Position numbers and translations under genes: made by a program. This document shows positions 18,696 through 61,675 of a stretch of DNA of 64,000 nucleotides, in pieces. The notes below the pieces were generated by a model, which was not told the DNA's origin, did not search any database, and worked only from the letters and a program-made list of their open reading frames with translations. Every line of letters begins with the position of its first letter. Position 1 is the stretch's first letter. Source of the DNA: an uncultured Candidatus Saccharibacteria bacterium (GTDB lineage: Bacteria; Patescibacteriota; Minisyncoccia; Phycocordibacterales; DATDWN01); assembly GCA_964468795.1 (NCBI GenBank), contig CAYXWL010000001.1:232246-296245 (forward strand), written 5' to 3'.

Positions 18696-18703
18696 GGTGG
18701 AGC

Positions 18704-18745
18704 TCCCATCAAAAGTTTCAAATTATTTTAAAATCTTTGATGGGA
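18704..18745 (-). repeat. IR family copy a: TCCCATCAAA - AT-rich spacer - TTTGATGGGA
   Basis: 10-bp perfect inverted arms read directly; gene orientation is minus. Confidence 0.7.
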
Positions 18746-18885
18746 GGGCGAACAAATTTCGTTGCTCACCCATTGCACTGCGGTCTCGCCCTGCCTTATC
18801 AGCAAACGAAGTGTCTAGCTTCGTTGCTCGCTTAAGTCATTTCTGACATCAGCGAATTCGCGCAGGATCCCCGCTCAAGTTTGTG

Positions 18886-19386: not shown

Positions 19387-19420
19387 GAGCCCTCCTTTGG
19401 GCAAAATACAGACTATTTTT

Positions 19421-19534
19421 AAAGAACTTTGGAACAATTTTGTTCCTTCAGAATACTTAACCTAGGTTAAACCCTCTGAAGGAAGTCCGAGGATATATGA
19501 CTTCCTCGGACGATACCGGGCTGACGCGCCGATA
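19421..19534 (-). promoter_or_regulatory. conserved structured leader, copy B (the homolog is at 26174..26288 on the plus strand)
   Basis: ~75 nt nearly identical to copy A: ATCGGCGCGTCAGCCCGgTATCGTCCGAGGAAGTCATATATCCTCGGACTTCCTTCAGAG. Covarying hairpins and GTTCTTT follow. Confidence 0.5.
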
Positions 19535-19544
19535 GACGTTATTG

Positions 19545-20093: not shown

Positions 20094-20128
20094 TGTTTTT
20101 CTCCAAAGAACAAAGGGAAATTATTTTC

Positions 20129-20165
20129 CCGTCAAAACTCTGAAATAAATTCAAAACTTTGACGG
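20129..20165 (-). repeat. IR family copy f (variant arms CCGTCAAA / TTTGACGG)
   Basis: Preceded on the minus strand by hairpin GCCGAACttcgGTTCGGC. Followed by GGGAAAataaTTTCCC, GTTCTTT, GGAG and the start of 19545..20093. Confidence 0.6.
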
Positions 20166-20421
20166 AAGCCGAACCGAAGTTCGGCAAGTGTGATGGTAAA
20201 CTCGGAGTAGTTGTAGCCACTCTTTGCTCTTTAGGTAACTTGCGCCCTTAGCGAATACCCTGATTCCATCGCCAGACAGAATCACGGGAGAGTGGTTAAA
20301 GCTACAACTTCTAACCAACTACTCGCTCAATATGTATCACGGGCCATCACGCTCCACGACACGTCGCAACATTTTTCCTGCTCAAAAAATTCTACGATGT
20401 ACCGTGGAACTTTACAAAGAA

Positions 20422-20474
20422 CTTCTGTTTCGTCGTTTCCGACTCATCAGGTGAGACATACATCTCACGACAGG
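20422..20474 (-). ncRNA. hammerhead ribozyme, type III (HHR1)
   Basis: Minus strand: cCUGUC|GUGAGA-UGUAUG-UCUCAC-CUGAUGA-GUCG-GAAA-CGAC-GAAAC-AG. Full catalytic core, GUC cleavage site. Confidence 0.8.
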
Positions 20475-20558
20475 TGCCTTGGGTGCTAATCAAGACAAAT
20501 GATTTTTGGCCCTACTGCCCCTTGCGGGTACTCGGACCTTCTGTTGCCAAGCCGGTCA

Positions 20559-20939
20559 TTACTCCGGCTCCGTCTCCTCAAGCTGCTCTTCAGCAAGCTC
20601 GAGTTTTCTGCAGGCCTCTTCGAAGGCAACCAAGGCAGGAATGTTTCCCTTGCCCAGCTCTGGCAGCACTACGATTGGGAAGATTTCATCTCCCGTCTCG
20701 AGGTACAACCGAGAACCTTCTCCGTCGTGATGGGCGGCCCGCGAGAACTGGCGATGGCAGGAACGGCACTCGAAATAATCCAAGTCGTTCACTTCCACCG
20801 TGCAAGCTCCACAGGACGGACACCCATAACAAAGGAGTCGGCGTTGCGATTCTTCGTAGGCGAGCATTGGACACGAAGACAAGTGCTCGGACACTGACTC
20901 GTGGCAGTGTCGGCACTTTACCGTCAGTCGCAGTCTCAT
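20559..20939 (-). CDS. Cys-rich zinc-ribbon-like protein (126 aa)
   Basis: ATG at 20939, 5 nt after AGGAGG. CRHC..C..CYGCPSCGAC..CRSC motifs. Confidence 0.55.
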   Translation of the reverse strand: MRLRLTVKCRHCHESVSEHLSSCPMLAYEESQRRLLCYGCPSCGACTVEVNDLDYFECRSCHRQFSRAAHHDGEGSRLYLETGDEIFPIVVLPELGKGNIPALVAFEEACRKLELAEEQLEETEPE

Positions 20940-21315
20940 ACTCACCTCCTATTAAAGAACTTGAGACAAACCATTTGCCTCGTCATAATAATCAAAATCT
21001 TGATTTCTCTGACGAGACCCCGACTGATATTTTAGTCGGGATGTTGTGGTGGTGACTGTAAGCGATTGCAGTCACTTACAACCTTGAGATGTTCGGCGAA
21101 TTCCGAGCACCTCTTAGTGAATGTTTGGCTCCACCCGTATCCGAAATAGATACGGGAATCTGGCGCAAGCGCTGGGTGAGAATCTGCAACTCTCACGCTC
21201 TAAGCACCATTCACTCCCTCATGTATCATGGGCCACCACAGCTCCACGACACCTTGCACAACATTTTTTAGAAAAATTCTGTGCGAGATGTCGTGGATAG
21301 ATCAAAAGAACAGTT

Positions 21316-21366
21316 TCTGTTTCGTCCTTTCGGACTCTTCAGGGAGAATACACATTCTCCGACAGA
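21316..21366 (-). ncRNA. hammerhead ribozyme, type III (HHR2)
   Basis: Minus strand: CUGUC|GGAGAA-UGUGUA-UUCUCC-CUGAAGA-GUCC-GAAA-GGAC-GAAAC-AGA. Only the variable N7 differs from the other copies. Begins 6 nt after the stop codon of 21373..21651. Confidence 0.8.
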
Positions 21367-21372
21367 GCCGGA

Positions 21373-21651
21373 CTAACGTGCCGGCAACGAATAATTTTTT
21401 CTTCTCCACCTCCAAGGTTCATTTGAACCGACTCGGAACACGTAGCGGCCACACCGTGAGGTGTACCAGCCACGCGACTCGTCGGCCTTCCGCATTTTTG
21501 TGCGGAAGAAGTTACGAAGGCGACTCACATCACGCGACGTGAGCGGGCGGCCCTTGAGGACCTTTGCCCAGCTGAAGTACCCGTCTTCACGAGTGATCTC
21601 CAGCAACCGACCACCGAACCGATACTGGCCTCTTGACCACTCGCTTCCCAT
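21373..21651 (-). CDS. hypothetical basic protein (92 aa)
   Basis: ATG preceded by CTAGGAGGTATC. R/W-rich. Confidence 0.45.
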   Translation of the reverse strand: MGSEWSRGQYRFGGRLLEITREDGYFSWAKVLKGRPLTSRDVSRLRNFFRTKMRKADESRGWYTSRCGRYVFRVGSNEPWRWRRKNYSLPAR

Positions 21652-22032
21652 GATACCTCCTAGTTTTGAAAGAATAGTGGGTGTTTGCAGGATCCTCTCT
21701 GACTTTAATAGTCCGTGGCTTATCCACAGCTATTTCCTAGTGGTAACTTACCCACAAGGTCGTCTTTGATTAATCACCGCTAACATTGCACACCCGCGCA
21801 ACGCCAAGATGCCGGCAAGCATCTGGTGGATCGGAGCAAAGTTGCCTGGCCTCAGTTCTGTACGATTGCAGCCACTTTGGACTGCAATCTACCTCTCAGG
21901 CTGCCATGCCTTCGAAACACAGAAGTGTACCTTTGGCTCTGCTCCTAACGAAGATCCATCGGACTCCGGAATTTACCAAACTATTTGTCGAGCAAATTCC
22001 GAAATCCGTGAACCATTTTATTTTAAAGAACT

Positions 22033-22083
22033 TCTGTTTCGTCCTTTCGGACTCATCAGGCGAGACACTCATCTCACGACAGA
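22033..22083 (-). ncRNA. hammerhead ribozyme, type III (HHR3)
   Basis: Minus strand: UCUGUC|GUGAGA-UGAGUG-UCUCGC-CUGAUGA-GUCC-GAAA-GGAC-GAAAC-AGA. 5-bp open stem III. Confidence 0.85.
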
Positions 22084-22133
22084 CCAGGATGACGCTCTGG
22101 TAGACGTTTAGGAGATTCTGTTGCCGAGCTCTC

Positions 22134-22352
22134 CTAGTGCTCCGAGGCTGAGTCAGTGAGGATCAGCGTGGTAACCTCGGCGTAAAACGCCTCGACCTCT
22201 GGTCCACCGAACAGGGGTTTGTAAGACCCGTCGGAGTTCCGAGGCCAGATGCCTATGATGGCATCGAGCGTCGCCTTCGAGAGGTTGAATCTCTCGAAAG
22301 TCTTCCGCGCGAGTTCCTCCGAGATCCCCGTGATCTGATAGACTCTTTTCAT
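22134..22352 (-). CDS. hypothetical protein (72 aa)
   Basis: Start MKRVYQITGISEELARK after GAGGAGAGTGAC. Confidence 0.45.
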   Translation of the reverse strand: MKRVYQITGISEELARKTFERFNLSKATLDAIIGIWPRNSDGSYKPLFGGPEVEAFYAEVTTLILTDSASEH

Positions 22353-22388
22353 GTCACTCTCCTCAAAGAACTCGGAACGAACCATTCG

Positions 22389-22460
22389 TCCCATCAAAGA
22401 AATCAAGCTTTATTATTTTCTTGAAAGTAAACTTTCAAGTTGTTAATTGCTTTGATGGGA
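22389..22460 (-). repeat. IR family copy b: TCCCATCAAAG - 50-nt AT-rich spacer - CTTTGATGGGA
   Basis: 11-bp perfect arms. The spacer contains hairpin CTTGAAAgtttacTTTCAAG. Confidence 0.7.
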
Positions 22461-22566
22461 GGGCAAACGATGTTTTGTCGCTCACCCATGTTTACCCATG
22501 CTTTTACGCGGAAGGATTTTTCCACAACTTCGGTGCCTTGGCCGAAGGTTGACGCACCCAGTCGGA

Positions 22567-22743
22567 TTACTTCTTCCGATAGCCAGGCTTCCCGCCACAG
22601 GGAACGGAAACTGCTTTCACAGATTCCCGTTTTGCGGTTTTCAGCCTGCCGTCGTAGAAGTAACCAGCCCGAGCGAGGATCTTGTTGGCTTGCGCCTCCA
22701 AAGTCCTCTGATGGTTTGTGGCCACCATTGTGATTGTTGTCAT
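22567..22743 (-). CDS. hypothetical protein (58 aa)
   Basis: MTTITMVATNHQRTLEAQ.. preceded by GAGGAGGATC. First ORF after a ~370-nt leader. Confidence 0.4.
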   Translation of the reverse strand: MTTITMVATNHQRTLEAQANKILARAGYFYDGRLKTAKRESVKAVSVPCGGKPGYRKK

Positions 22744-23116
22744 GATCCTCCTCAGGATTGACTGGTTGTTAATGTAAAGAACATCGCGGGGGATGAGTTC
22801 GGGCTGGGGCCTAGTACACCGTGCAGCAACACGGGACTTCAGGCGAAAAGTGACCCCATATTGGTTTGCCTTACGCGAGATTCTTGCTCGCGCCTGGCTC
22901 CGCACACTTCCCTTGCTGAAGGGGAAGACTCCCTATGCGGTATTGAATGCCACCCTACACACCCCCACCTCAAAAGACTTGTATCTTCTGAAGCGGAGGA
23001 ATGTGTCCTCCATTTGTAAAGAAATGCACTTTGAAGTTAATTTTGATTGCGGGTCCGTGATATTTATCTGGACGGTTGCCATTCGCTAATAAAACTTAAC
23101 TTCAAGGTACACTGGT

Positions 23117-23145
23117 AGTATATACTAAACGTATATTTTTGTCAA
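23117..23145 (-). promoter_or_regulatory. sigma70-type promoter for the minus-strand GC-rich operon
   Basis: Minus strand TTGACA - 17 nt - TATACT. Confidence 0.55.
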
Positions 23146-23280
23146 GCAGTTTTGACATTTTCTTTTTATAAATCTAAAAATAGCTATAAATATAGCCATT
23201 ATATAGAATATAGATTTAATTTAACCTGACTAAACTAGTATTAAATTGACATACTAAATAAATAATTTTGTTATTTATAT

Positions 23281-23309
23281 TTGACAAATAAAATGAATGG
23301 GTATATACT
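23281..23309 (+). promoter_or_regulatory. sigma70-type promoter for the candidate ncRNA
   Basis: TTGACA (23281-86) - 17 nt - TATACT (23304-09). Confidence 0.6.
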
Positions 23310-23314
23310 TATAG

Positions 23315-23658
23315 GCAGACGAGTACCCAGGGTGTTCTTGGGGAAAGGAGGGTTCCATGCACGACTAGTGCGGGCTGGGGAACCGGGGGTTGTTAACCCC
23401 CGGTGTGGCCTCCAGTTTGGCTAGTCATAGATTGTGGAGGAAGCAAAAGTGGACGACTAGCACATAGGTGGTTCCAGTTCCATGCGTCCGACCACCAGAT
23501 AGTCAGAGGACGCGAGACAGATCATCTTCGTTCAGTTCAAGGTGGAAAATCCACCAGACAAAGAGAGAAGTGTGATTCCGTCAATCGTTCCCGGCGATTA
23601 GTCTTCGGGAACAACATGCCGTGGCGACAACTTACCGTCGCCACGGCATTTCTTATTT
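23315..23658 (+). ncRNA. candidate novel structured RNA (~340 nt) with its own promoter and intrinsic terminator
   Basis: GC-rich island between a consensus promoter and terminator ATGCCGTGGCGACaacttaccGTCGCCACGGCAT+TTTCTTATTT. Many helices, e.g. CCGGGGGUUguuAACCCCCGG and GGUGGAaaaUCCACC. Confidence 0.5.
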
Positions 23659-24393
23659 ATGATCAAAGATATATTTAATTAGGCTTTTGAGAGTGTCTGC
23701 AAACTCTTTGCTTTTTATTAAAATACCAGATGGTCTCTTTCCCAGAATAGATATTCTCACTTGGTCACCATAAACAGTAATATCGCTACTTAAAGGATAC
23801 TTCTCTGAATTTATTTTTAGCCTCTCTCCCATTTCATCTGATGGTTTATCTATATTTTTTGAAGTGTATATAGATCTAGATTTAATTCCTCTTGAAATCC
23901 TACGATCTTTTAGTCTACTTGTTTCTTTATCATCGAAAATATCCTTAACTAGATCTAAAGGATAAACTATATAAACAGGTTCATCAGGAAGTATTTTTAT
24001 AAAAGTATCATCATTTGAGCTAAGCACCCCTTCTTTACCATCAAAAAACTGAACCATTGGTTTTTCCCCTTGTTCTCTTTGGATACCTTTTAATTGTGGG
24101 ACGATAATATCTAGACCTTTTTTATTCTCTTCTAATAAGTGGATCTGTCTTTCTACGAACAAGCCAAGTTTTTCTGGAGGTTCAGCAATATAAAAAGTCT
24201 TTTTTCCAATATTTGATTCACTAACTAAACCCTTCTTCTGTAAAGATTCCAGGATCACGTATGCAGTAGGACGCTTTATCGTTGCTTTTTCGGCAATTTC
24301 AGTTACAAGAGCTTTATCAAAGGAAAGAAGAGCTAAATAAACTGCTGCTTCCTTATCACTAAGCCCAATATCTTTAAGGTATTTTTCAAACAT
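23653..24393 (-). CDS. TrmB-family transcriptional regulator
   Basis: N-terminal LGLSDKEAAVYLALLSFDKALVTEIAEKATIKRPTAYVILESLQKKGLV winged HTH. AT-rich like the host. Confidence 0.75.
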   Translation of the reverse strand: MFEKYLKDIGLSDKEAAVYLALLSFDKALVTEIAEKATIKRPTAYVILESLQKKGLVSESNIGKKTFYIAEPPEKLGLFVERQIHLLEENKKGLDIIVPQLKGIQREQGEKPMVQFFDGKEGVLSSNDDTFIKILPDEPVYIVYPLDLVKDIFDDKETSRLKDRRISRGIKSRSIYTSKNIDKPSDEMGERLKINSEKYPLSSDITVYGDQVRISILGKRPSGILIKSKEFADTLKSLIKYIFDHK

Positions 24394-24481
24394 ATGATTG
24401 TGATGATTTTGATTATTATAACATAGATTTTTTATTTTTTAAAAACAAAATCCGCCCTCCAACGGATTTCGTTGTGGGCGG

Positions 24482-24979
24482 TTAGGATTTACGATACTTC
24501 TCCTCCATTTCTCGGATAGCTTCCTCCAGAGTTCCGAGTCCCATTGCATGTCTTCTCTCATCAACATGCTCAGGATCCTCGATTTCTTTCGGAATAAACT
24601 TTCCGTCGACTTCAGTAAATTGTGTACCGAAGATTTGTGGACGATCCGTGTTCACTCTCACACGATCTGCGAGGTATGCCAGATCTTCTTTGATGATTTC
24701 CTCGAGAGGGCAATCCATCATAGAGTGTAGGCACAACTGTTGGAACGTGGGGTCATGGTCAGCGTGTTGAACGATGAGCCATGCAGAATGTGATGCTTCT
24801 CTGCCCACCATAGAAATCGTAGGCCATCTGTGATGTAACCAGATCCTCATCATCTTCACAGTGTTCTGAAAATCAACTGTCTCATCCCAGAAATCAGGAT
24901 CAAGAAGATTCTTGGAGCGCATTTCCTGGTCAACACGCCCCATCTCAAGTAGCTGTTCTGCCAACTCAGGGAAGAGCAT
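24482..24979 (-). CDS. hypothetical protein (165 aa)
   Basis: ATG preceded by AAAAAGGAGGTCAC. GC-rich. Ends at terminator CCGCCC..GGGCGG+T-run. Confidence 0.55.
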   Translation of the reverse strand: MLFPELAEQLLEMGRVDQEMRSKNLLDPDFWDETVDFQNTVKMMRIWLHHRWPTISMVGREASHSAWLIVQHADHDPTFQQLCLHSMMDCPLEEIIKEDLAYLADRVRVNTDRPQIFGTQFTEVDGKFIPKEIEDPEHVDERRHAMGLGTLEEAIREMEEKYRKS

Positions 24980-24994
24980 GTGACCTCCTTTTTC

Positions 24995-25222
24995 TCACAC
25001 GGGTTGAGTCCATTCTTTCAGAACTCGCACAGTCTTGACCCAGCTTTTCTGATAGACAAGCGGATCATCACTTGGAGCGTCCACCAGAGCCTTGGCAATC
25101 ACTTCTGCTTTGGCGTCGTCTTCAGCTTCAAATGGGATGAACTTCCAACCTCCGCTGGTTAGCCATCTACTATTCGAAGCTGTGTAACGCATTTCTGCAT
25201 ACCAGACTTCGTATTTCGACAT
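24995..25222 (-). CDS. hypothetical protein (75 aa)
   Basis: Start MSKYEVWYAEMRY after AAACGGAGGTTTT. The track ORF was trimmed. Confidence 0.45.
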   Translation of the reverse strand: MSKYEVWYAEMRYTASNSRWLTSGGWKFIPFEAEDDAKAEVIAKALVDAPSDDPLVYQKSWVKTVRVLKEWTQPV

Positions 25223-25238
25223 AAAACCTCCGTTTCTA

Positions 25239-25284
25239 AATATACCATTTTGTGCTTGACAAGTCAAGTAAAGTATGCTAGGAT
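25239..25284. promoter_or_regulatory. back-to-back divergent promoters with adjacent -35 boxes that together form a palindrome
   Basis: Plus: TTGACA(25256-61)-17-TAGGAT. Minus: TTGACT(25267-62)-17-TATATT. The -35 boxes lie in CTTGACaaGTCAAG. Confidence 0.5.
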
Positions 25285-25353
25285 AGAGGTAGTAATTCCT
25301 GTATGTATGTACAGGTCGCCCGAGAAGGGTAGGACAGAAAAAGGATGTGTCGT

Positions 25354-25662
25354 ATGACGCAGAATGCATATGATTTGAAGAAGATCGTGAACGGTCCGAG
25401 CAAGATGGACCTCATGCTGGCGATGTTCGACAGCAGCTTCCCGAATCACCGTTCAGTTGTCTTCAACTTTGAGAATGAGGGAGCGAGCAACTTCAAAGCT
25501 AGTGCTCCCTGTCACATCTCGATGGTTGAGAAGGAAGACGGTTCTGGCGAAAGCTTTAACTTCGAAGGAACTCTCTCCTACGACAACTTCCGGACAGGTA
25601 AGAGGGTGCGTGGTTGCTATAACACCATGCGCCGGACTGGCTTCTTCCACTTCGTGCAGTAG
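25354..25662 (+). CDS. hypothetical protein (102 aa)
   Basis: MTQNAYDLKKIVNG.. after AAAAAGGA. Confidence 0.45.
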   Translation: MTQNAYDLKKIVNGPSKMDLMLAMFDSSFPNHRSVVFNFENEGASNFKASAPCHISMVEKEDGSGESFNFEGTLSYDNFRTGKRVRGCYNTMRRTGFFHFVQ

Positions 25663-25690
25663 TTCTTCTGGGCGAGTTGTTAACTCGCCC

Positions 25691-25730
25691 TCCCATCAAA
25701 GTAATTAAATTTTTGATTTCTTTGATGGGA
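25691..25730 (+). repeat. IR family copy c
   Basis: GGGCGAGTTgttAACTCGCCC hairpin, then TCCCATCAAAG-18 nt-CTTTGATGGGA. Confidence 0.7.
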
Positions 25731-25782
25731 CAATTTGGTCCCGATTTGTTCATTTCAATTTTCAGTGCCCAAAGGAGGGCCC

Positions 25783-26154
25783 ATGATCAACGAACGTGGT
25801 GAGTTTATTCGCGAGACGGCAGCTCCTTCTACCAAGGAAGTCACCACGAAGAATTACATGGTCAACGTGGTCACTTCATCGCTCAAGGATATTCTCAGTG
25901 GACACAACCTGATCAGCGACATGAACCAGGTTATCCTTCTCCAGTTCGGACCTTGCTCGGAAGAGGAAGGTGACGCTCTGGCGGATCGGATCAACGCGTG
26001 GGTTCGTGGGGGTGAAGGTCGTGGTCCTGCTGAGGCATTCCGGATTCTGGGACTGCACCAGAAGACGGGAGATGTGTGGGCGTCTTGCGACCCGATCCCG
26101 ACGGCTGGCATCTCGGAACTTCTCCAAAAGTTCCAGGTGAAAACCACTGTTTGA
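25783..26154 (+). CDS. hypothetical protein (123 aa)
   Basis: MINERGEFIRE.. after AAAGGAGGGCCC. Confidence 0.5.
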   Translation: MINERGEFIRETAAPSTKEVTTKNYMVNVVTSSLKDILSGHNLISDMNQVILLQFGPCSEEEGDALADRINAWVRGGEGRGPAEAFRILGLHQKTGDVWASCDPIPTAGISELLQKFQVKTTV

Positions 26155-26173
26155 TCAACATAAAGATCCGTCC

Positions 26174-26288
26174 ATCGGCGCGTCAGCCCGATATCGTCCG
26201 AGGAAGTCATATTATCCTCGGACTTCCTTCAGAGAGTTCAACTTTGTTTGAAAATTCTGAAGGAACGAATAGTTCGTTCTGGTTCTTT
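26174..26288 (+). promoter_or_regulatory. conserved structured leader, copy A
   Basis: ATCGGCGCGTCAGCCCGATATCGTCCGAGGAAGTCATATTATCCTCGGACTTCCTTCAGAG ... TTCTGAAGGAACGAAtagTTCGTTCtgGTTCTTT, then GGGGAGG and ATG at 26302. Confidence 0.5.
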
Positions 26289-26301
26289 GGGGAGGTACAC
26301 C

Positions 26302-26520
26302 ATGTTCGTCAGCAATACCACGATTTTTCACTGCCCGATGTTCGGGTGCGGTCACGAAAACGAACGTTCGAACCGCACGAAGCCGGAAGACATCGTTTGC
26401 GAAGGATGTCACGCACCTTGGTGGCCGATGGAACTCGGTTTCATTGGAAATGATCCGAAAGAAAACATCGAGTTCGCACGGACTCATGATCGGAAAGGAA
26501 ATCTTCGTGAGCTGGCGTAA
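26302..26520 (+). CDS. zinc-ribbon-like small protein (72 aa)
   Basis: MFVSNTTIFHCPMFGCGHENE..CEGCHAPWW. Confidence 0.45.
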   Translation: MFVSNTTIFHCPMFGCGHENERSNRTKPEDIVCEGCHAPWWPMELGFIGNDPKENIEFARTHDRKGNLRELA

Positions 26521-26550
26521 TTCTTCTGGGCGAACGTAATTTGTTCGCCC

Positions 26551-39777: not shown

Positions 39778-39805
39778 AAAAATATTTTGCTTTTATTTAT
39801 AAATG

Positions 39806-39879
39806 TGCGCCTGCCTGGACTCGAACCAGGGACCCCAGAGGTATAAGCTCTGTGCTCTAACCAACTGAGCTACAGGCGC
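39806..39879 (-). tRNA. tRNA-Ile with anticodon UAU
   Basis: GCGCCUG-UA-GCUC..GAGC-A-CAGAG-CUUAUAC-CUCUG-..CCUGG-UUCGAGU-CCAGG-CAGGCGC-A. No encoded CCA. Confidence 0.8.
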
Positions 39880-42367: not shown

Positions 42368-42492
42368 AGCTACGCACAGTATACATGAAAGCATACAAAA
42401 TAAAAGATGAAGATTAATGGAATAGACATGAAGAGTCATCCTCCTAAATTTGCCTTTTTATGTTAGTCTGTGGTTCTGCTACAATAAAACAG

Positions 42493-42936
42493 ATGTCGCT
42501 TATCACCAACCGAAAAGCCGGCTTTAATTACGAATTCCTAGAAAAATATACTGCAGGTATAGAGCTTTTTGGTTATGAAGTAAAATCGTTGAAAGAAAGC
42601 CATGGGTCTATCGAGGGTGCGCACATAACAGTGAGGGGTGGTGAAGCCTTTATTGTGGGCATGTTTATACCACCATACCAGCAAAACAACACACCAAAAG
42701 ATTACGACCCTTACAGAACTCGAAGATTACTTCTCAATAAAGAAGAAATCGTAAAAATAGCTAAAACCGAAGCCACAAAAGGCTTGACAATTGTCCCTAT
42801 TTCGGTGTATAATAGTAATGGTAAAATTAAGCTCGAGATAGCAGAAGTGCGTGGAAAGAAAAAGTTCGACAAAAGAGAGACTCTGAAGAAAAAGGATTCT
42901 CTCCGCGATGTTGCACGAGAGCTTAAAGATCGATAG
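42493..42936 (+). CDS. smpB: SsrA-binding protein
   Basis: NRKAGFNYEFLEKYTAGIELFGYEVKSLK.. Directly upstream of the tmRNA. Confidence 0.9.
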   Translation: MSLITNRKAGFNYEFLEKYTAGIELFGYEVKSLKESHGSIEGAHITVRGGEAFIVGMFIPPYQQNNTPKDYDPYRTRRLLLNKEEIVKIAKTEATKGLTIVPISVYNSNGKIKLEIAEVRGKKKFDKRETLKKKDSLRDVARELKDR

Positions 42937-42985
42937 TTTTTTGAAATCACAAACCTGCCTCAATAAGAGAGATTAAACCTTGTTT

Positions 42986-43120
42986 GAGGATTTTATTTTT
43001 TAGAGCATACGCAGGCTTCTAGCATGGGTTCGTCAAGGTACCCTGCCTTGACGAATAGAAGCCGAGGACCGAGCAAACTTTTCGCAGGAAAAGCGAGCGT
43101 CTCTAAGAAATAAGATCCTC
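42986..43120 (+). repeat. structured intergenic element, copy A (62-nt conserved core inside a 20-bp inverted repeat)
   Basis: Core 43006-43067 is ~95% identical to the reverse complement of 51674-51735. Outer arms GAGGATTTTATTTTTTAGAG / CTCTAAGAAATAAGATCCTC. Confidence 0.7.
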
Positions 43121-43146
43121 AATAAAAAGGTTTATACTTCCCTATT

Positions 43147-43533
43147 GGGGATGACAGGTTTTGACATAAGGACGACATTGATTCGTGCAATGCGGAGCTT
43201 CGATAACTCCTGAAACTGTCGAAAACAATAAGTGTAAAAAACTTATCTAAGGGCATTGCGTCTCCTTTTGGAAACGCATTCGCTTTCTCACCAGCACTAG
43301 CATAAGCTAACTCGGTAAGACGGTCATTTCCATGATACCTCTATATGGAAAATGATTGATATAAAACGAGGTTAGGATAAAAGACTGTTCCGACTCTTGT
43401 CCGAAAAATAGGAACTCGATCACAATGTATTTTGTTTGTTCCAAGCATTGTGGTTTAACACACTAAACAATCTACGCACTGTAGAAACGCTTCAATTCTC
43501 TTTATGGACGTGGTTTCGATACCACCATCTCCA
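43147..43533 (+). ncRNA. ssrA: tmRNA (ssrA)
   Basis: 5' GGGGATGACAGGTTTTGAC. 3' tRNA-like GGACGTGGTTTCGATACCACCATCTCCAC. Tag frame ..GCATTCGCTTTCTCACCAGCACTAGCATAA (..AFAFSPALA*). Confidence 0.85.
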
Positions 43534-43594
43534 CAAAAAAACAGAACGCCATTTATGGCATTCATCAAAAAACTCCCGTTCGGGAGTTTTTTGA

Positions 43595-44888: not shown

Positions 44889-44950
44889 CTTTGCAAAATC
44901 CATAAAATGTGCTATATTTTTACTACTTTTAGAAGTTATCAATAAATTAT

Positions 44951-45745: not shown

Positions 45746-46096
45746 ATGACAAGAGTAAAGAAAGGAGTAAATGCTCTAAAATCAAGAAAGAATATCCTAC
45801 GAAAGACAAAAGGCTTTCGACATGGACGAGGTTCAAAGGAAAGACAGGCAATGGACGCCTTGCTTCACGCTGGTGCATATGCATTTGCGCACAGACGAGA
45901 CAAGAAAAGCGATGCTCGAAAGAACTGGAATGTAATGATTTCATATGGAGCAAAGGAGCTTGGAACATCATACTCAAAGCTAATGGGAGCACTAAAGAAG
46001 AAAGGAGTGATGATAGACCGAAAGATCCTCGCGACACTTGTTGCAGAGCATCCAGAAACATTTAAGAAAGTAGTAGCCCTAACATCATCTAAATAA
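45746..46096 (+). CDS. rplT: 50S ribosomal protein L20
   Basis: MTRVKKGVNALKSRKNILRKTKGFRHGR. Confidence 0.9.
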   Translation: MTRVKKGVNALKSRKNILRKTKGFRHGRGSKERQAMDALLHAGAYAFAHRRDKKSDARKNWNVMISYGAKELGTSYSKLMGALKKKGVMIDRKILATLVAEHPETFKKVVALTSSK

Positions 46097-46128
46097 CTAA
46101 AAACTCCGGAGATTACCGGAGTTTTTAG

Positions 46129-47100
46129 TTATTTAATGAATTTTATAGCATTAAAATTACACATAGTTTTATCTCCCCCATCTATAAGTCGAGGTAGGAC
46201 TGTACCACTTAATGCTTGTTCATATAATTCATTTGCCGCGATCCTATCAGGTGTATTGATAATAATTTTTTCAATATTATCAATTATCTTATCTGCTTCT
46301 TCATTTGATCTAATATAACGAAGACAATTCCATAAGTTAACTTCAGCTATAATGTTTTTAACTTGCTTCTGTTGTGACAAACCATCCTTTAAACTTTTTT
46401 CTCTGGTAGCAACATATGACTTTATAGCAGTAATGGTGGATTCATCTTTGTAATTATCTAGAATGTACTGCTGAATATCTGAAGTTGTGGAGTTTAGGAA
46501 TTTAAAGGTTGAAAGAATTTTATAGGCTTCCTCTGTCATTACAGAAAAGCTAAACATTTTACCTGCATTTGAGGTTCTATATACATCATAACTATACATA
46601 CCAGCCATGTTATAAACATTAAAATCTACACCGTTTATTTTGGTGGTAGAAGTAGAAAGTATATAATCATATTTTGAACTATCCCTATTATCAAAAATCA
46701 TATCTACACTAACTCCATCTCCAGCAAACTCACCTTTTCTCCAAAAATCATATCTCTCTTTTGATGTAAAACTAATTTTTCCTTCGTCCACACCAACCTC
46801 TTCAACAACCCAGTCTGGAGGCATTTTTAACTCAAATCCATACTCCTCGTTGCGATATGTTTTCCATCCAGAGTGTTTATCCTGTACTTCCACCTGCTTT
46901 TCAAAAGACTTTCCTAATTTGTAGCTTTCGTATGCCTTGTATTTAAAATAACCTGCCAGAGAAAGTCCGATTAAAATTAGAACTCCGCAAAACATCAAAA
47001 ACCAAGGAGTAAAATTTTTCTTTGGATCAGTTTCAAAAAAATTAAAGGGTGGTTTAGGGACAGGAGTCTGTGGAATTTGATTTTGCTCTTGTGGTTCCAT
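46129..47100 (-). CDS. hypothetical membrane-anchored protein
   Basis: Start trimmed to MEPQEQNQ. One TM (FTPWFLMFCGVLILIGLSLAGYF). Confidence 0.55.
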   Translation of the reverse strand: MEPQEQNQIPQTPVPKPPFNFFETDPKKNFTPWFLMFCGVLILIGLSLAGYFKYKAYESYKLGKSFEKQVEVQDKHSGWKTYRNEEYGFELKMPPDWVVEEVGVDEGKISFTSKERYDFWRKGEFAGDGVSVDMIFDNRDSSKYDYILSTSTTKINGVDFNVYNMAGMYSYDVYRTSNAGKMFSFSVMTEEAYKILSTFKFLNSTTSDIQQYILDNYKDESTITAIKSYVATREKSLKDGLSQQKQVKNIIAEVNLWNCLRYIRSNEEADKIIDNIEKIIINTPDRIAANELYEQALSGTVLPRLIDGGDKTMCNFNAIKFIK

Positions 47101-47226
47101 ATGTTTATTTATTATACAACAAACTTTCATAATTGGATGCAGTTCTAGGCGGACAAAAAAATACCGCGAGCCTTATATAGATAAGGTGAGCGGTATTTTT
47201 TGAAGTCCAACAACGAAATGCGTCAA

Positions 47227-48609
47227 TTATGAAAGTTTGTAAATTTTACCACGTTCGGGGTATATAGCATCCACCTCAAGCTCATCCCTAAGCCTCTGAG
47301 TTAGATATGTTGAAGATTTTGGTTCGCCCATGACCACGAACACTTTTTTGACTTTCTTTGCAGTATTGGAAACCATGTCTACTATTCCGTTCGAATCCTT
47401 GTGGGAAGAATAGCCAGATATCATTTCTATCCTAGCTTTTACCGGAACAATTTCTCCATTGATTTCAATTTCTCTTGGCTTTTCCTGTATTCTCCTTCCC
47501 AGCGTTCCTAGAGCCTGATAGCCCATGAGCAAAATCGTGCTTTTTGGATCCGGCAGGTACCTTATTTCATGCGCTACTACCCTTCCACCAGAGGACATGC
47601 CCGAACCTGCAATGATGATTTTTGGGTTTGAAATATTTTCTATCTCGTTCGACTCTCTTGAACCATGCGTAATAGTAAGTTTTGGAAAATTGAAGATATT
47701 GTCACCGCCTTTTATCTCATCATTTACGCCCTTATTAAAATCTTTTGTTTTTTTAGCATAAACTTCTGTGACCTTGAGCCCCAAGGGAGAGTCCAGAAAA
47801 ACCGGCACGGAAGGGATCTTGCCGTCTTCTACCATATTGTTGAGTTCATACAGAATAACTTGCGTTCTTTCTATCGAAAAAGCTGGTATTACCAGAGCTC
47901 CTCTTGAAGCGATAGTCTCTTTTACAACGCTTATAAACCTTTTGTCTCTAACATCTTTTGGCTCATGATTCCTGTCCCCATATACGCTATCTACCACCAA
48001 ATAATCCGCATCGGTTATTTCCTCTGTTTGCTTGAGCAAAGGAGACGGCGAGTTTCCAGAGTCGCCAGTAAAAACTATTTTTCTGCCGTCGTATGAAAAC
48101 TCATACATTGATGAGCCTAGAATATGCCCTGCGTCTTTTAAGTAAACTGAAAGATCATCTGTAATTTTTGTATTTTCGTTATATGGGATAGTTCTCCATA
48201 GGGCGAAGGCAGTATTAGCATCGTTGGCATCATATAGAGGCGGAATCTTGAAACCGTCTTCTATCTCTTTTTCCTTGGACTTCATATCCATAACCTTTAT
48301 GGCATCCTCTATCATCAAAATGGCTAGGTCTTTTGTCTCCGGAGTTGAATATATGATTCCTCGAAAGCCGTCCTTTACCAGCTTGCCCACTCTGCCTATA
48401 TGATCCATGTGAGCATGAGTGATAAACAGAAAATCAATTGTTTTCGGATCATACGGGAAAGGCTTTGCGTTTTCTTCTTCTGCCGTTGGAGTTCCTTGAA
48501 CCAGTCCGCAATCTACCAAAAACCTTTCATCCTGAGTCTCCACCAAAAAGTTTGCCCCTGTCACAGTCCCTACTCCGCTCCAAAATGTCACTTCAAGTTT
48601 TTTTGCCAT
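47227..48609 (-). CDS. MBL-fold / beta-CASP family hydrolase (RNase J/CPSF-like)
   Basis: FITHAHMDHIGR (HxHxDH) plus downstream D/H motifs. The start may be 48630. Confidence 0.7.
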   Translation of the reverse strand: MAKKLEVTFWSGVGTVTGANFLVETQDERFLVDCGLVQGTPTAEEENAKPFPYDPKTIDFLFITHAHMDHIGRVGKLVKDGFRGIIYSTPETKDLAILMIEDAIKVMDMKSKEKEIEDGFKIPPLYDANDANTAFALWRTIPYNENTKITDDLSVYLKDAGHILGSSMYEFSYDGRKIVFTGDSGNSPSPLLKQTEEITDADYLVVDSVYGDRNHEPKDVRDKRFISVVKETIASRGALVIPAFSIERTQVILYELNNMVEDGKIPSVPVFLDSPLGLKVTEVYAKKTKDFNKGVNDEIKGGDNIFNFPKLTITHGSRESNEIENISNPKIIIAGSGMSSGGRVVAHEIRYLPDPKSTILLMGYQALGTLGRRIQEKPREIEINGEIVPVKARIEMISGYSSHKDSNGIVDMVSNTAKKVKKVFVVMGEPKSSTYLTQRLRDELEVDAIYPERGKIYKLS

Positions 48610-48611
48610 TT

Positions 48612-49010
48612 TTATTTTATTAATTTCCAAGAGTATAGTGATGCCAAAAGTCCTCCCAAAAGATCCATGGATAAATCACCCATTGTGTCTTTGTAGTAAA
48701 GCCAGCCATCAGACAAAGTGGTAATGCCAAAGTGCAGTTCGAATATTTCCCACAATATTCCGATAAGGAGCGTCCCAAGAACACCTATTATAATGACTTT
48801 TTTCTGCGAATTTTCAATTTCTGAATAGAGACAAGATACCAGCCATATTGTACCCATGCCCACGCAGGCCCCTCCCAAAAGATGCATAGGTTTATCTAAG
48901 CCCGATACAGTCCAATAGTAATAGAATTTATTGTTTATATAATCGGCTACTCCTATGAAAGCTAAAATAGCAAAGGCCCGAAAAAATAGATTTGAGTTTC
49001 TATATTGCAT
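48612..49010 (-). CDS. small integral membrane protein
   Basis: 132 aa, 4 TM. Confidence 0.5.
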   Translation of the reverse strand: MQYRNSNLFFRAFAILAFIGVADYINNKFYYYWTVSGLDKPMHLLGGACVGMGTIWLVSCLYSEIENSQKKVIIIGVLGTLLIGILWEIFELHFGITTLSDGWLYYKDTMGDLSMDLLGGLLASLYSWKLIK

Positions 49011-50909: not shown

Positions 50910-51497
50910 TTAGAGACCGATCTCTTTCATTATATCGGCATGGACTTCTTCTATAGATTTCTCGCCGTCAATCGAGATGAAGTTATAGTATGTGTTGTTC
51001 CTAAAATATTCAAGTGCCGGCACGACATTTTCATAGTACCAAGCTATTCGCTTTTCTATGTCATGCTCATTGTCGTCTGTTCTACCTCTTCCCAAAAGCC
51101 TGTCTTTTGCCCATTCCTTGCTCACTGCCATAGAGATGACATAAGGCTTTTCTCTCTTGTAAAACTTCATTGCCGAGTCCAAAATAGGCGCTTCATGGGC
51201 TCGTCTTGAAAGTCCGTCGAGAACCATGTGTTCGTCTCCAGAAACGTGCTTTATGAGATATTCTGTCCAAATCCAAATCGGCAAAAATTCTGGCAGTAGG
51301 CCTCCTTTTGACATTATTTCCTTGGTCATCTGTGCAGTAACAGATGCTTCTGTAGAAAAATCTCTAAATCTTTGACCTGTCTCTATGTACAAAACTTCTC
51401 TATTATCTTTTTCTTTTAGCTTATCAATAAGTAGCTTTGCCTGTGTTCCCTTTCCGGCGCCTGATGGCCCGAAGAATATGAATGTTTGTGGAGTCAT
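50910..51497 (-). CDS. adk: adenylate kinase
   Basis: FFGPSGAGKGTQAKLL P-loop. Confidence 0.9.
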   Translation of the reverse strand: MTPQTFIFFGPSGAGKGTQAKLLIDKLKEKDNREVLYIETGQRFRDFSTEASVTAQMTKEIMSKGGLLPEFLPIWIWTEYLIKHVSGDEHMVLDGLSRRAHEAPILDSAMKFYKREKPYVISMAVSKEWAKDRLLGRGRTDDNEHDIEKRIAWYYENVVPALEYFRNNTYYNFISIDGEKSIEEVHADIMKEIGL

Positions 51498-51544
51498 GAA
51501 TAAAGTATACCAGATTTAACTCACATATGAATCATTTGCATACC

Positions 51545-51760
51545 AAAACCCCATTATAACTTTTTAGAAACAAAAAATTTCCCAACGGGAAATTTTTCTC
51601 TCTCCTTACAGGAGCAGTACACCTTTCGCAAAGTTTTGCTCAAGATCTTGCGAAGCAATAATATTGCTTCTCACCTCGGCTTCTATTCGTCAAGGCATGG
51701 TACCTTGACGAAACCATGCTAGAAGCCTGCGTATGTTCTAAAAAGTTATAATGGGGTTTT
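51545..51760 (-). repeat. structured intergenic element, copy B (conserved core inside a perfect 25-bp inverted repeat)
   Basis: Arms AAAACCCCATTATAACTTTTTAGAA (51545-69) / TTCTAAAAAGTTATAATGGGGTTTT (51736-60). Core 51674-51735 is the reverse complement of the copy A core. Confidence 0.7.
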
Positions 51761-53030
51761 AGTACTCGCGGATTGAAACCTGAGCGTCTATTTTCTTGAT
51801 CAGATCGATTACCACAGATACCACAATAAGGAGAGCTGTACCACCTACAGAAACAGCTGTAATTCCTGTAAAACCTCTGATAATGAGAGGAAGAACAGCA
51901 ATGAATCCTAGGAAGATGGCGCCTACCAAAGTCAATCGAGTAAGTATTCGTGAAATATGATCTGCTGTAGATTTTCCAGGTCGTACTCCAGGTATGAATG
52001 CTCCGTTTTTCTGAAGATTGGTAGAGATCTGATCTGGATCAAATGTAACTGCTGTATAGAAGTATGTGAAGATAAACACAAGCAGGAAGTATGCTATTCC
52101 GTAGAACCAGCCATTTGCCAAAATTGCTAGGATTTTTGAAGAGACTGTCTGGATCCATGCATGGCTTGAATTCTGCAAGAACCTTAGAATCATCTGAGGG
52201 AACAAAAGGATAGATAGAGCAAAGATGATTGGAATTACACCTGCTTGATTGATTCGTAGAGGAAGGTATGTAGATGTTCCTCCGTAAACTCTGTTTCCCC
52301 TTACCTGCTTTGCGTATGTTATAGGGATTGGCCTTTCAGCTTCTGTAATGACAACCACTCCAACAATAACTAAAGTGGCAATGACAATGAAAGCCAAGTA
52401 AACTGGAAGCTGAGCTGTGCTAAATGAGAATGCCAGCTGTCCTGCAGCAGATGGAAGAGCTGCTACGATACCTGAAAAGATGATAAGGCTTATTCCGTTT
52501 CCAATTCCATATTCAGTGATAAGCTCTCCGATCCACATAAGCAGAACTGAACCCGCGGTGATAACTAAAAGGTTTGTCGTAAGCTGAAGTCCTGACAAAT
52601 GAGTAATGACTCCCTGATTCTCCAAAAGTTTTATAAAGCTGAAAGCCTGTAAAAGCGCTAGAGGAACTGTAATCATTCGTCCGTACTGGGCAAATTTTCT
52701 CCTGCCCACCTCCCCGTCTTCCTGATACATTTCTTTTAGCTTTGGAGAAAGTATAGTCAAAAGTTGCATGATGATAGAACCTGTAATATAAGGTCCTACT
52801 CCAAGCATCACGATAGAAAGCTGTGAAAGGCCTCCTCCTGAGAAAATATTTAGCAATCCTAGAAATTCGTTGCTAGAAAAAAATTGTGCAAGCCTTCCAT
52901 GATCAACTCCTGGAACAGGAACAGATGCCAGCACTCGGAACAGTGCCAAAGCAAAAAGTGTAAAAAGTATTCGCTTTCGCAGGATGCTGTCCTGGAAAAC
53001 GAGTTTGAATTTGTTCATGAAGTTGCTCAT
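51759..53030 (-). CDS. secY: preprotein translocase subunit SecY
   Basis: 423 aa, 10 TM, typical SecY N-terminus. Confidence 0.9.
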   Translation of the reverse strand: MSNFMNKFKLVFQDSILRKRILFTLFALALFRVLASVPVPGVDHGRLAQFFSSNEFLGLLNIFSGGGLSQLSIVMLGVGPYITGSIIMQLLTILSPKLKEMYQEDGEVGRRKFAQYGRMITVPLALLQAFSFIKLLENQGVITHLSGLQLTTNLLVITAGSVLLMWIGELITEYGIGNGISLIIFSGIVAALPSAAGQLAFSFSTAQLPVYLAFIVIATLVIVGVVVITEAERPIPITYAKQVRGNRVYGGTSTYLPLRINQAGVIPIIFALSILLFPQMILRFLQNSSHAWIQTVSSKILAILANGWFYGIAYFLLVFIFTYFYTAVTFDPDQISTNLQKNGAFIPGVRPGKSTADHISRILTRLTLVGAIFLGFIAVLPLIIRGFTGITAVSVGGTALLIVVSVVIDLIKKIDAQVSIREY

Positions 53031-56520: not shown

Positions 56521-56700
56521 TATATCCCTGATAAAGAAAAAACTCCATTTATGGAGTTTTTTCTTTACACGAGTTTGTCGTTCTGAGGATTTTTGCTAGA
56601 GTTCGAGGTGGGAGTGCGGATTGCGACCAAGCTGTACAAGTAGTATTGCGCGGGAGCAAACGCAAGCGACAAACAAAGAAATCGAGCAAAAAGACCAGAA

Positions 56701-60400: not shown

Positions 60401-60646
60401 CTAGGTGGGATCATAAATCCTTACAAGTGCAGTACACCGCGTACAATGCACCTCGCCTAGCCTAGTTACTGGATCTACATTTACTATCTTGTGCTCTTGA
60501 GGAGTAGACGAGCATACGGGACAGTTCTTTCCATCAATCGGAATGGCCTGCGTACCGAACTCTGTTCTCCATATGGCAACAAACCCAGCTTCACCAACTG
60601 CTCTTGCAAGAGCTTCGAGCATCCTGCCTCTCTTGGTTTCTTCCAT
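60401..60646 (-). CDS. small zinc-ribbon-like protein (81 aa) in a GC-richer cassette between rplB and rpsS
   Basis: CPVC..(22 aa)..CTRC. ATG after AATCGGAGGAATC. Flanked by terminators (60749-60797 and 60369-60392) and promoter-like TTGACT-17-TTAAAT. Confidence 0.55.
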   Translation of the reverse strand: MEETKRGRMLEALARAVGEAGFVAIWRTEFGTQAIPIDGKNCPVCSSTPQEHKIVNVDPVTRLGEVHCTRCTALVRIYDPT

Positions 60647-60832
60647 GATTCCTCCGATTATTAATTTAATTCTATTATGGAAATAAAGTCAAAGGCCATC
60701 TTGCATTCGTAAAACTTCCCAATTTGGGTGAGATACGACGGGAGAAAACAAAAAATGCACCGAGGTGTACATATAGTACATTGAGGTGCATTTTTGGTTT
60801 TTGGACCGAGTAGGTCGCCAAATTTGGAAGTT

Positions 60833-61675
60833 TTACTTGTTCTTTCCAACTCGTCGTCGTGACACAATAAATTTGTTTGAATACTTCTTTGGAGTTCGTG
60901 TCTTCTGTCCCTTTCCTGTTGGCTTTCCGTAAACTGAGATTGCTCGTCTTCGTCCTCTTCCTTGTCGTCCTTCTCCTCCTCCGTGTGGGTGATCCACTGG
61001 GTTCTGAGCTGTTCCCTTTACTGTAGGCCTGATACCCAACCATCGTGATCGTCCGGCCTTTCCTAGGTTTACTAGTCGGTTCTCATCGTTTGATACATCA
61101 CCGATAGATGCCCACGCAGTATCTTTTACCTTTCGAACTTCTGTTGAAGGGAGCTTTAGGTCAACATATCCGTTGTCCTTTGAAATAACTTCAACATAGT
61201 TTCCGGCAGATCGAGCAAGCTTTGCTCCACCGTTCGGTTTTAGTTCAACGTTGTATACAAATGTACCAATGTTGATGTTTTTTAGAGGAAGTCTGTTTCC
61301 AGGCTTCTGCTCTGCATTCTCACCTGTAACTAGAACATCTCCAACTCGTACTGCCTTTGGAAGAAGAACATATCGCTTCTCTCCGTCGTGATACTGAGCA
61401 AGACCGATAAATCCTGTTCTGTTTGGATCATACTCAACTGTCTTGATAGTGTAAGGAATATTTATTTTGTCGTATCGAAAATCAACAGCTCGGAAAAGTC
61501 TCTTGTGGCCACCTCCCTTATGTCGCGTTGTGATGATGCCTGAGTTGTTTCGGCCCATGTCTCGCTTGTAGCCATGTGTCAAAGACTTTACAGGTTCTGA
61601 TGCAGTAATGAAGTTGCCATATGAGATGGTCGTCATTCCTCGTCGTGATTTTGATGTTGGTCGGTATCGCTTCAT
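60833..61675 (-). CDS. rplB: 50S ribosomal protein L2
   Basis: 280 aa. ..RHKGGGHKR.. and ..NPVDHPHGGGEGR.. Confidence 0.9.
   Translation of the reverse strand: MKRYRPTSKSRRGMTTISYGNFITASEPVKSLTHGYKRDMGRNNSGIITTRHKGGGHKRLFRAVDFRYDKINIPYTIKTVEYDPNRTGFIGLAQYHDGEKRYVLLPKAVRVGDVLVTGENAEQKPGNRLPLKNINIGTFVYNVELKPNGGAKLARSAGNYVEVISKDNGYVDLKLPSTEVRKVKDTAWASIGDVSNDENRLVNLGKAGRSRWLGIRPTVKGTAQNPVDHPHGGGEGRQGRGRRRAISVYGKPTGKGQKTRTPKKYSNKFIVSRRRVGKNK

Follow-up and report, generated by a model that had tools for sequence, protein, structure and literature searches.

Within a 64,000-nt stretch of genomic DNA from an uncultured Candidatus Saccharibacteria bacterium (assembly GCA_964468795.1, contig CAYXWL010000001.1, positions 232,246 to 296,245; hereafter the window), a 62-nt core occurs in two nearly identical copies, here termed A and B, each nested in a long inverted repeat of its own, and a third copy (C) is found at a different site in a related species. 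[quoted passage not shown] The family is confined to a narrow clade of Patescibacteria (Parcubacteria/Paceibacteria-like). The repeat, its nesting, the third copy, the orthologous sites that are empty or differently filled and a conservation above the neutral level are all directly observed.

A conserved core inside locus-specific inverted repeats

Copy A of the core spans positions 43006-43067 of the forward strand (62 nt, reading CATACGCAGG...GCCGAGG) and copy B positions 51674-51735 of the reverse strand. The first-pass annotation of the window had described the former as a near-identical reverse complement of the latter, and this is borne out, with 2 differences in 62 nt. The stretch shared by the two copies is longer than the core, running from 42997 to 43067 (+) and from 51674 to 51744 (-), with identity at 68 of 71 positions (96%); the mismatches map to 43005, 43028 and 43043, two of the three falling inside the core. 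Searched with a 50-nt pattern that allows any base at two positions (N), the sequence yields copies A and B only, and 100 shuffles yield nothing. Despite the near identity of the shared stretch, the flanks of A and B are unrelated to each other, and homology 3' of the core is marginal (GAGCAAACTTT-CG, a score equalled by 27 of 2000 shuffles). In other samples, six contigs of this species carry copy A in identical form. Neither blastn nor two covariance models detected any further copy in the window or in its 16 kb of flanking sequence, which leaves two copies in ~80 kb.

As previously annotated, copy A lies between smpB (42460-42936, +) and the tmRNA gene ssrA (43147-43536, +), and copy B between secY (51759-53030, -) and adk (50910-51497, -), both in the sense orientation and the latter with a 5' arm that extends over the stop codon of secY and the codon before it. 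The inverted repeat of copy A pairs 42984-43005 with 43101-43122 over 22 nt (20 Watson-Crick and two T.G pairs), with an additional 8-bp helix outside it (42974-81/43127-34), and that of copy B pairs 51736-51764 with 51541-51569 over 29 nt (28 Watson-Crick pairs and one T.G). Long inverted repeats of differing sequence had been recognized in the first-pass annotation, with lengths of 20 bp (18 matching) for copy A and a perfect 25 bp for copy B. The components of the two copies, each in its direction of transcription, are the following.

42974..42981, plus strand: outermost 8-bp helix of copy A, 5' strand (UAAACCUU), from the minimum-free-energy (MFE) fold
42984..43005, plus strand: 5' arm of the outer inverted repeat of copy A (22 nt, 91%), its last 9 nt (TTTTTAGAG) common to copy B
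43006..43067, plus strand: conserved core of copy A, with helix P1 (43014-21/43056-63), segment J (GCAUGGG, 43022-28), helix P2 (43029-38/43046-55) and loop (43039-45)
43078..43093, plus strand: hairpin 2 of copy A (CUUUUC-GCAG-GAAAAG), from the MFE fold, with different-stem counterparts in copies B and C
43101..43122, plus strand: 3' arm of the outer inverted repeat of copy A, from the inverted-repeat search
43127..43134, plus strand: outermost helix of copy A, 3' strand, ending 12 nt upstream of the mature tmRNA 5' end (43147)
51736..51764, minus strand: 5' arm of the 29-bp outer inverted repeat of copy B, spanning the final codon of secY and its stop codon (51759-51761)
51674..51735, minus strand: conserved core of copy B, with P1 (51727-20/51685-78), J (51719-13) and P2 (51712-03/51695-86)
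51570..51673, minus strand: copy-specific 3' interior of copy B, with hairpins at 51652-70 and 51602-14, a counterpart of hairpin 2 (51621-34, GCGA loop) and a terminator-like hairpin (A-tract, stem, T-tract) at 51573-97
51541..51569, minus strand: 3' arm of the outer inverted repeat of copy B, adjoined by the adk promoter-like site (51531-51504)

The arms resemble each other at their inner ends (TTTTAGAG/CTCTAAGA in A, TTTTAGAA/TTCTAAAA in B and TTTCAGAG/CTCTGAAA in C), where the three copies share 8-9 bp of the form TTTYAGAR/YTCTRAAA; the outer 14-21 bp are unrelated among them. Compensatory changes are present in this inner inverted repeat (a G-C pair in A is A-T in B, and another pair is C-G in C), the differences being truly compensated on the opposite arm. 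The outer stems are unrelated local hairpins with no homologous positions, and the earlier proposal that they covary has to be abandoned. The notion of a conserved cargo within long, non-homologous inverted repeats holds, and copy C repeats the pattern in another species; so does the notion that the termini are not fixed like those of a classical MITE, since the outer arms are unrelated and no terminal inverted repeats of the same sequence were found across the copies. The small second hairpin, too, has a different stem in each copy, namely CUUUUC-GCAG-GAAAAG in A, ACUUU-GCGA-AAGGU in B and CAAAAUCC-GCAG-GGUUUUUG in C.

Long perfect palindromes are frequent at gene ends in the window genome, as revealed by the inverted-repeat search. 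Those at 46090-46135 (20 bp) and 56532-56567 (17 bp), which have loops of 2-6 nt and consist of an A-tract, a short G+C core and a T-tract, are the plain form of the long hairpins that carry inserts elsewhere.

A promoter-like site for adk (TTCATA-16-TGnTATACT, 51531-51504, -) ends 6 nt before the adk ATG, and TATAAT boxes occupy the same distance before adk in two relatives (L032 and L033; L-numbers, from L019 to L039, denote relatives' loci). Given that adk has its own promoter downstream of the element, in a layout shared with these relatives, copy B lies in the 3' untranslated region (UTR) of secY. As a side observation, the placement of the promoter suggests that transcription would start at the ATG, yielding a leaderless adk mRNA and leaving secY as the last gene of the ribosomal-protein transcript. 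No U-tract follows the stem of copy A, where a terminator scan found no terminator; the outer stem of copy B ends in GGGG followed by UUUU, and the copy contains an internal AAAAAUUUCCC...GGGAAAUUUUU hairpin, the consensus terminator scan calling nothing; the stem of copy C, as read from the sequence, is followed by UUUUGUUUGUUUUUU. A simple intrinsic terminator was rejected because it does not fit copy A, and a translational-coupling stem because the 3' arm of copy B ends 44 nt before the start of adk, which has its own promoter.

Other identities were considered for the element and discarded. The core is open in one frame, over 41 aa from stop to stop. A HMMER search against 1.84 billion protein representatives returned one spurious match, made up of summed weak matches to a 2862-aa repeat protein, and the open reading frame (ORF) of 25-27 aa that starts with AUG in A and B has no counterpart in C, which has ACG in place of that codon; a coding reading was rejected, and the element holds no conserved ORF. 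A retron msr/msd and a CRISPR-type repeat were likewise rejected, there being neither a reverse transcriptase nor an array. The scan for known RNA families that had been advised in the first-pass annotation gave no gathering-level match to the element in Rfam 15 and, in E-value mode on A, B and C, chance-level weak matches at most, leaving all three copies outside the known families. Scanned for exact 18- and 19-mers, the viral, genome and metagenome collections yielded only chance matches with no flanking similarity, a degenerate core pattern found nothing in viral contigs, and blastn in its distant mode had no match in phage and plasmid collections.

A third copy and the orthologous sites in relatives

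A covariance model of copies A and B detected copy C at L032:14134-14204 (-), in assembly GCA_023266995.1, with 29.3 bits and E = 3e-5 (68 bits after its inclusion in the model). Copy C matches A and B at 73-76% identity, lies between the gene for a 219-aa protein and the infC promoter, in sense to both, and is enclosed by a perfect 29-bp inverted repeat with arms of AAAAACAAACAAAAGAATACATTTCAGAG and the reverse complement of that sequence. With copy C included, the model detected nothing more across 248 kb of clade loci. Relatives identified through SmpB and SecY are labelled Patescibacteria, Parcubacteria, Paceibacterota or Minisyncoccia, and in the nearest species SmpB is 81% and SecY 87% identical to the proteins of the window. 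Between the window species and that of L032, secY shows 74% nucleotide identity, with 46% at 177 four-fold degenerate sites, and intergenic spacers are otherwise unalignable. The identity of 73-76% in the core, as against 46% at four-fold sites, therefore points either to constraint or to a more recent common ancestry via transfer and, since the sites of the copies are not orthologous, movement is required under both.

These data bear on another alternative, in which the repeat arose, with neither mobility nor function, through gene conversion between two hairpins that were already there or through a segmental duplication by chance. Such an event would sit well with the occurrence of just two copies in ~80 kb of the window genome, but it is difficult to reconcile with a copy in another species, at a third, non-orthologous site and with the same nested architecture, or with a core conserved well above the neutral level, and we deem it highly improbable.

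The sites corresponding to those of the three copies are empty or otherwise filled in relatives. In the smpB-ssrA spacer, only ~25 nt separate a promoter-like motif from the tmRNA 5' end in L019 and L020, and three other loci carry at the position of copy A a long hairpin with an unrelated interior (L021:2489-2585, L024:10491-10583 and L033:~20646-20739, the last on the minus strand). This hairpin of the pre-tmRNA leader, absent in L019 and L020, starts 10-14 nt after a promoter-like -10 motif and bears an apical GGAUA-stem-UGGU-stem-UUCC hairpin; across the three species, 13 of its 38 predicted pairs keep pairing through two-sided changes. Homology of the core to these leader hairpins was also evaluated and rejected, as local alignment scores did not exceed those of shuffles in either orientation. 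The outer stem of copy A is most simply explained as the local leader hairpin with a new apex.

At the 3' end of secY, the contig carrying P0123 has a spacer of only 51 nt, L037 a plain 16-bp palindromic terminator starting at the stop codon (TAATAAAAAGACCTCC-CTTA-GGAGGTCTTTTTATTA), L038 a 19-bp palindromic terminator that begins no more than a few nt from the stop codon, with a 146-aa ORF after it, and L033 and L039 ORFs of 238 aa and 96 aa, respectively; L032 harbors a different element, homologous to window 60709-60836. Among the 120 relatives listed, the SecY C-terminus SIREY* is invariant and the length is 423 aa in nearly all. Hence, the secY part of the copy B 5' arm is ancestral, and it is the 3' arm that has been matched to it. 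Finally, the spacer upstream of infC measures 62-122 nt in the window (44889-44950), L024 and L033; it leads from the stop codon straight into a promoter-like TTGCAA...TATATT and contains no hairpin in any of them.

The copies thus show what is expected of a MITE, namely dispersal with filled and empty orthologous sites, at three sites in two species. The first-pass annotation had dismissed a mobile element, which was premature, since presence and absence at orthologous positions and the different sites occupied in each species reveal the core as an insertion. That the flank repeats are inverted, and not direct, fits insertion at the center of a palindrome and also a templated extension of the palindrome.

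Under the insertion reading, the module would occupy the apex of long hairpins in transcribed, dispensable spacers: the 5' leader of the pre-tmRNA, the secY 3' UTR upstream of the adk promoter and, in the relative, the spacer upstream of the infC promoter. The outer arms would be mostly local sequence, of the terminator-palindrome or leader-hairpin type, with only the inner 8-9 bp belonging to the shared unit. Because the module is predicted to fold on itself through P1 and P2, the host stem could still close around it in the transcript, and the insert would be tolerated. Judging from the standard maturation of tmRNA, the cut by RNase P would remove copy A along with the leader, and copy B may be tolerated for its position behind the secY stop codon. 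Movement might proceed by the targeting of hairpin tips in single-stranded DNA or by recombination between hairpin tips, the module would presumably lack a dedicated host function, and the long outer duplex would be a putative substrate of the RNase III type.

Two features of the surrounding operon deserve separate mention. One is an insertion hot spot in the spacer behind secY, which holds small ORFs without Pfam domains (L033:11393-12109, 238 aa; L038:11327-11767, 146 aa; L039:6607-6897, 96 aa) that are mutually unrelated even among strains with identical SecY; extra ORFs also occur inside the ribosomal-protein operon, between rplB and rpsS in the window (60401-60646, 81 aa) and between rplE and rpsH in a relative (L029:16857-17513, ~218 aa). 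There is, besides, a second family of small elements, with fixed termini (TAAAACTTCCAAATTTGGCGA...CCAAATTNNGAAAGTTTT), comprising window 60709-60836 (-), L032:6643-6760, L032:15660-15850 and L024:~12870-13040 (-). All four copies, from three species, have their start at the stop codon of the gene upstream, which is rplB, secY or one of two others, and two of them, that of the window and that behind the L032 secY, enclose an A-tract, hairpin and T-tract with loop TGTACnnnATGTACACCT. At the rplB 3' end of L033 and L038, this family is absent and a plain terminator is found instead.

Folding of the core and rival explanations

The 8-bp helix enclosing a 10-bp hairpin that had been proposed for the core is recovered in the MFE fold of both A and B, as P1 (GGCUUCUA/UAGAAGCC) and P2 (UUCGUCAAGG/CCUUGACGAA). 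Folded as RNA with their outer arms, the sense strands reach -72.9 kcal/mol (z = -9.7) for A and -107.2 kcal/mol (z = -12.2) for B. Over the three distinct sequences, 94.9% of P1 and P2 cells are paired. The proposed conservation of these helices is upheld in part: two of the 20 pairs, one per helix, change on both sides from U-A to C-G, but copy C breaks three of the 20 and has a different MFE fold. As 47 of 500 shuffles do equally well in covariation measures, the support for the core helices is suggestive, not decisive. The unpaired blocks CGCAG, AGCA and GCCGAGGAC are conserved between species.

The core had also been described as an H-type pseudoknot, formed by pairing of J with the P2 loop. 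The crossing complementarity is present in all three copies, as GCAUGGU/ACCAUGC (7 bp) in B, GCACG/CG(U)UGC (5 bp and one bulge) in C and, in A, either as 5 of 7 pairs in the register first proposed or, after a register shift, as GCA(U)GGG/CCCUGC (6 bp with one bulged U); its covariation is to be read with the proviso that there are three distinct sequences and that the register shifts between copies. In H-type geometry, linkers must span the grooves for both helices to coexist. Here, the linkers between the 7-bp J/loop helix and the 10-bp P2 measure 0, 1 and 0 nt, so that the two helices cannot be fully formed at once, and the pairing is better described as a set of alternative folds of the type a-b-a'-b' than as a simultaneous pseudoknot. 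While the RNA is being made, the J/loop hairpin (-8.6 to -10.9 kcal/mol) can be the first to form, with P1 and P2 (-27.7 and -29.2 kcal/mol) as the predicted end state.

Several observations weigh against a mobile module. Only three copies are known from the window, the 16 kb of flanks and the 248 kb of relatives' loci. Among the nine window ORFs scanned there is no transposase, the only recombinase being a large serine recombinase (29426-30757), and none of the three copies is bounded by a direct target-site duplication. The infC site of relatives has no pre-existing hairpin, and the 29-bp arms of copy C must have come with the insert or before it. Other points touch on the RNA. All three copies are sense to their local genes; the three non-Watson-Crick positions of the outer stems of A and B are without exception U.G in sense RNA and would be A.C in antisense, which, along with the shared orientation, hints at selection at the RNA level; and the antisense folds of A and B (-61.0 and -91.9 kcal/mol) are less stable than the sense folds by 12-15 kcal/mol. 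Moreover, both A/B differences of the core fall within the J/loop pairing, which is preserved after the register shift, as would not be expected of pure junk.

These latter points would be accommodated by a functional structured RNA, active in cis or after processing, for which mobility would be secondary. RNase III would cut the outer duplex, or the duplex would act as a protective terminal hairpin, so that the core is released or presented, and the alternation between P2 and the J/loop pairing would serve as a switch or as a platform for a protein. In line with this, the unpaired blocks are kept between species while two of the 20 helix pairs change with compensation, the shape of hairpin 2 is retained with different stems and GCAG or GCGA loops, the core is much more conserved than four-fold sites, and the J/loop pairing persists in all three copies, absorbing both A/B differences. 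The same reading is at odds, however, with the three pairs broken and the alternative MFE fold in copy C, with the unexceptional covariation, with an antisense fold of copy C that is as stable as the sense one, with the lack of any matching Rfam family and with non-orthologous sites and close relatives entirely devoid of the element. In copy B, furthermore, the internal terminator-like hairpin precedes the 3' arm, and the outer stem may often go untranscribed. On the whole, we consider a functional RNA of this kind somewhat unlikely.

The structure might instead be read at the DNA level, as a hairpin or cruciform site for a recombinase, a transposase or a replication or uptake protein (compare attC, the ends of IS200/IS605 and REP), with the a-b-a'-b' repeats and the unpaired bases as recognition features. 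Perfect or near-perfect outer palindromes, one of them reaching into the ancestral, invariant SIREY* end of the secY coding sequence, are more easily obtained by templated DNA processes than by point-wise selection on RNA; copy C retains a perfect 29-bp palindrome while its core decays, and the copies possess a pair of subterminal hairpins and, in the 5' flank, a conserved motif (TTYAGAR). The window ORFs scanned include no Y1/HUH transposase, RAYT or integrase, though, and the only serine recombinase is in a separate high-GC island; A and B are oppositely oriented on the chromosome, a poor fit to strand-specific transposition of single-stranded DNA; attC core sites are missing at the ends of A and C; and the G.U asymmetry favors RNA. 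We therefore view a DNA-level site as quite improbable, and retain the MITE-like insertion module as the reading to be compared with known systems.

Other elements of the window and comparison with known systems

Some further observations on the window concern other subjects. The segment at ~18000-32300 has a G+C content of 0.44-0.50, against ~0.38-0.40, and looks like an integrated mobile element: it contains the serine recombinase at 29426-30757 (Resolvase, Recombinase and Zn_ribbon_recom domains), a sigma-70 region-4 protein, a TrmB-type regulator and recurring terminator-like hairpins (TCCCATCAAAG...CTTTGATGGGA). A 118-nt inverted repeat lies at 30855-30972/32114-32231. Elsewhere, in a perfect 17-bp inverted repeat (47119-47135/47224-47240), the stop region of the upstream gene (47227..48630, -) pairs with the start region of the downstream one (46129..47130, -); it brackets a terminator-like palindrome (47156-47201) and could be a translational-coupling or processing stem. 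A tRNA-Ile with anticodon UAU is encoded at 39805-39879 (-) and in L024:6712-6786, implying that AUA codons are read directly and not through the lysidine route.

Among known repeats, the module is close to the Correia elements (CREE/NEMIS) and other MITEs (ERIC, RUP, BOX), which are ~100-200 nt long, non-coding, intergenic and co-transcribed, form through their inverted repeats a long hairpin that is a potential RNase III substrate, and are present or absent at orthologous sites (PMC2649163, PMC2229807, PMC10969869). Its architecture is nevertheless the reverse of the usual one: MITE termini are conserved and their interior is variable, while here the cargo is conserved and the arms are mostly locus-specific. 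It also differs in having no direct target-site duplication, a very low copy number and no known partner insertion sequence. SPRITE repeats are similarly tied to terminator-type hairpins downstream of genes, and nested insertions among small repeats have been reported, but SPRITE copies are alike throughout, whereas the terminator-like parts of the module are local and only the apex is shared.

REP sequences and REPINs, mobilized by RAYT transposases, are likewise intergenic, non-autonomous, imperfect and bulged long hairpins, thought to be recognized in single-stranded form (PMC3116915, PMC3337134). REPINs, however, come in tens to hundreds of near-identical copies with a conserved tetranucleotide and a RAYT partner (PMC3116915, PMC3337134), none of which is seen here; the module has two copies in ~80 kb, and no RAYT was found among the nine window ORFs scanned. 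Integron attC sites are not matched either, as RYYYAAC...GTTRRRY is missing at the ends of A and C and no IntI-type integrase appears among the ORFs scanned. PATEs, derived from IS200/IS605, have subterminal hairpins at both ends, a short conserved 5' target motif, a strand-specific orientation and a Y1 TnpA in the genome; in the module there are two hairpins and a conserved TTYAGAR 5' flank, but A and B occupy opposite strands less than 9 kb apart, and the nine ORFs scanned include no TnpA.

IS1397 and ISKpn1 target the hairpin loops of palindromic units (REP/BIME). Insertion at the center of a palindrome would give locus-specific inverted flanks, as in the module, but these are full insertion sequences encoding a transposase, and no such gene is linked to the module. 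Intervening sequences (IVS) are extra stem-loops in the helices of bacterial 23S and 16S rRNA that are removed by RNase III. The module resembles them as a structured stem-loop at the tip of a host helix that extends the duplex, is sporadic among relatives and is tolerated because it is removed or ignored in the RNA; it departs from them in being hosted by a tmRNA leader and by spacers of mRNA instead of rRNA, and in that its excision would be a prediction.

The genomes of Patescibacteria are very small, and repeats and mobile DNA are thought to be scarce in them; a small structured insert surviving only at the tips of hairpins within transcribed spacers would illustrate by what means modules, selfish or regulatory, hold out there. 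The inverted flanks point to hairpin-loop targeting or to templated palindrome building and, to our knowledge, neither has been described for this phylum. Carrying this further, it is conceivable, if unlikely, that the module represents a class of hairpin-tip elements of ultra-small bacteria of the candidate phyla radiation (CPR): a unit of ~100 nt with a two-state a-b-a'-b' fold, inserting specifically into the tips of long transcribed hairpins, terminators and the pre-tmRNA leader among them, or building perfect palindromic arms from its flanks, and kept because the host stem closes, with RNase III possibly removing or releasing it. Were this so, the class would be an mRNA and tmRNA counterpart of the rRNA intervening sequences, with a new insertion mechanism that leaves inverted flank repeats. 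In a more practical vein, the pre-tmRNA leader hairpin and the hot spot behind secY could have consequences for annotation and for the modelling of operons in these organisms. By analogy, the module would appear to work most like the RNase III-sensitive hairpin MITEs of the Correia type (PMC2649163, PMC10969869) and the intervening sequences of rRNA.

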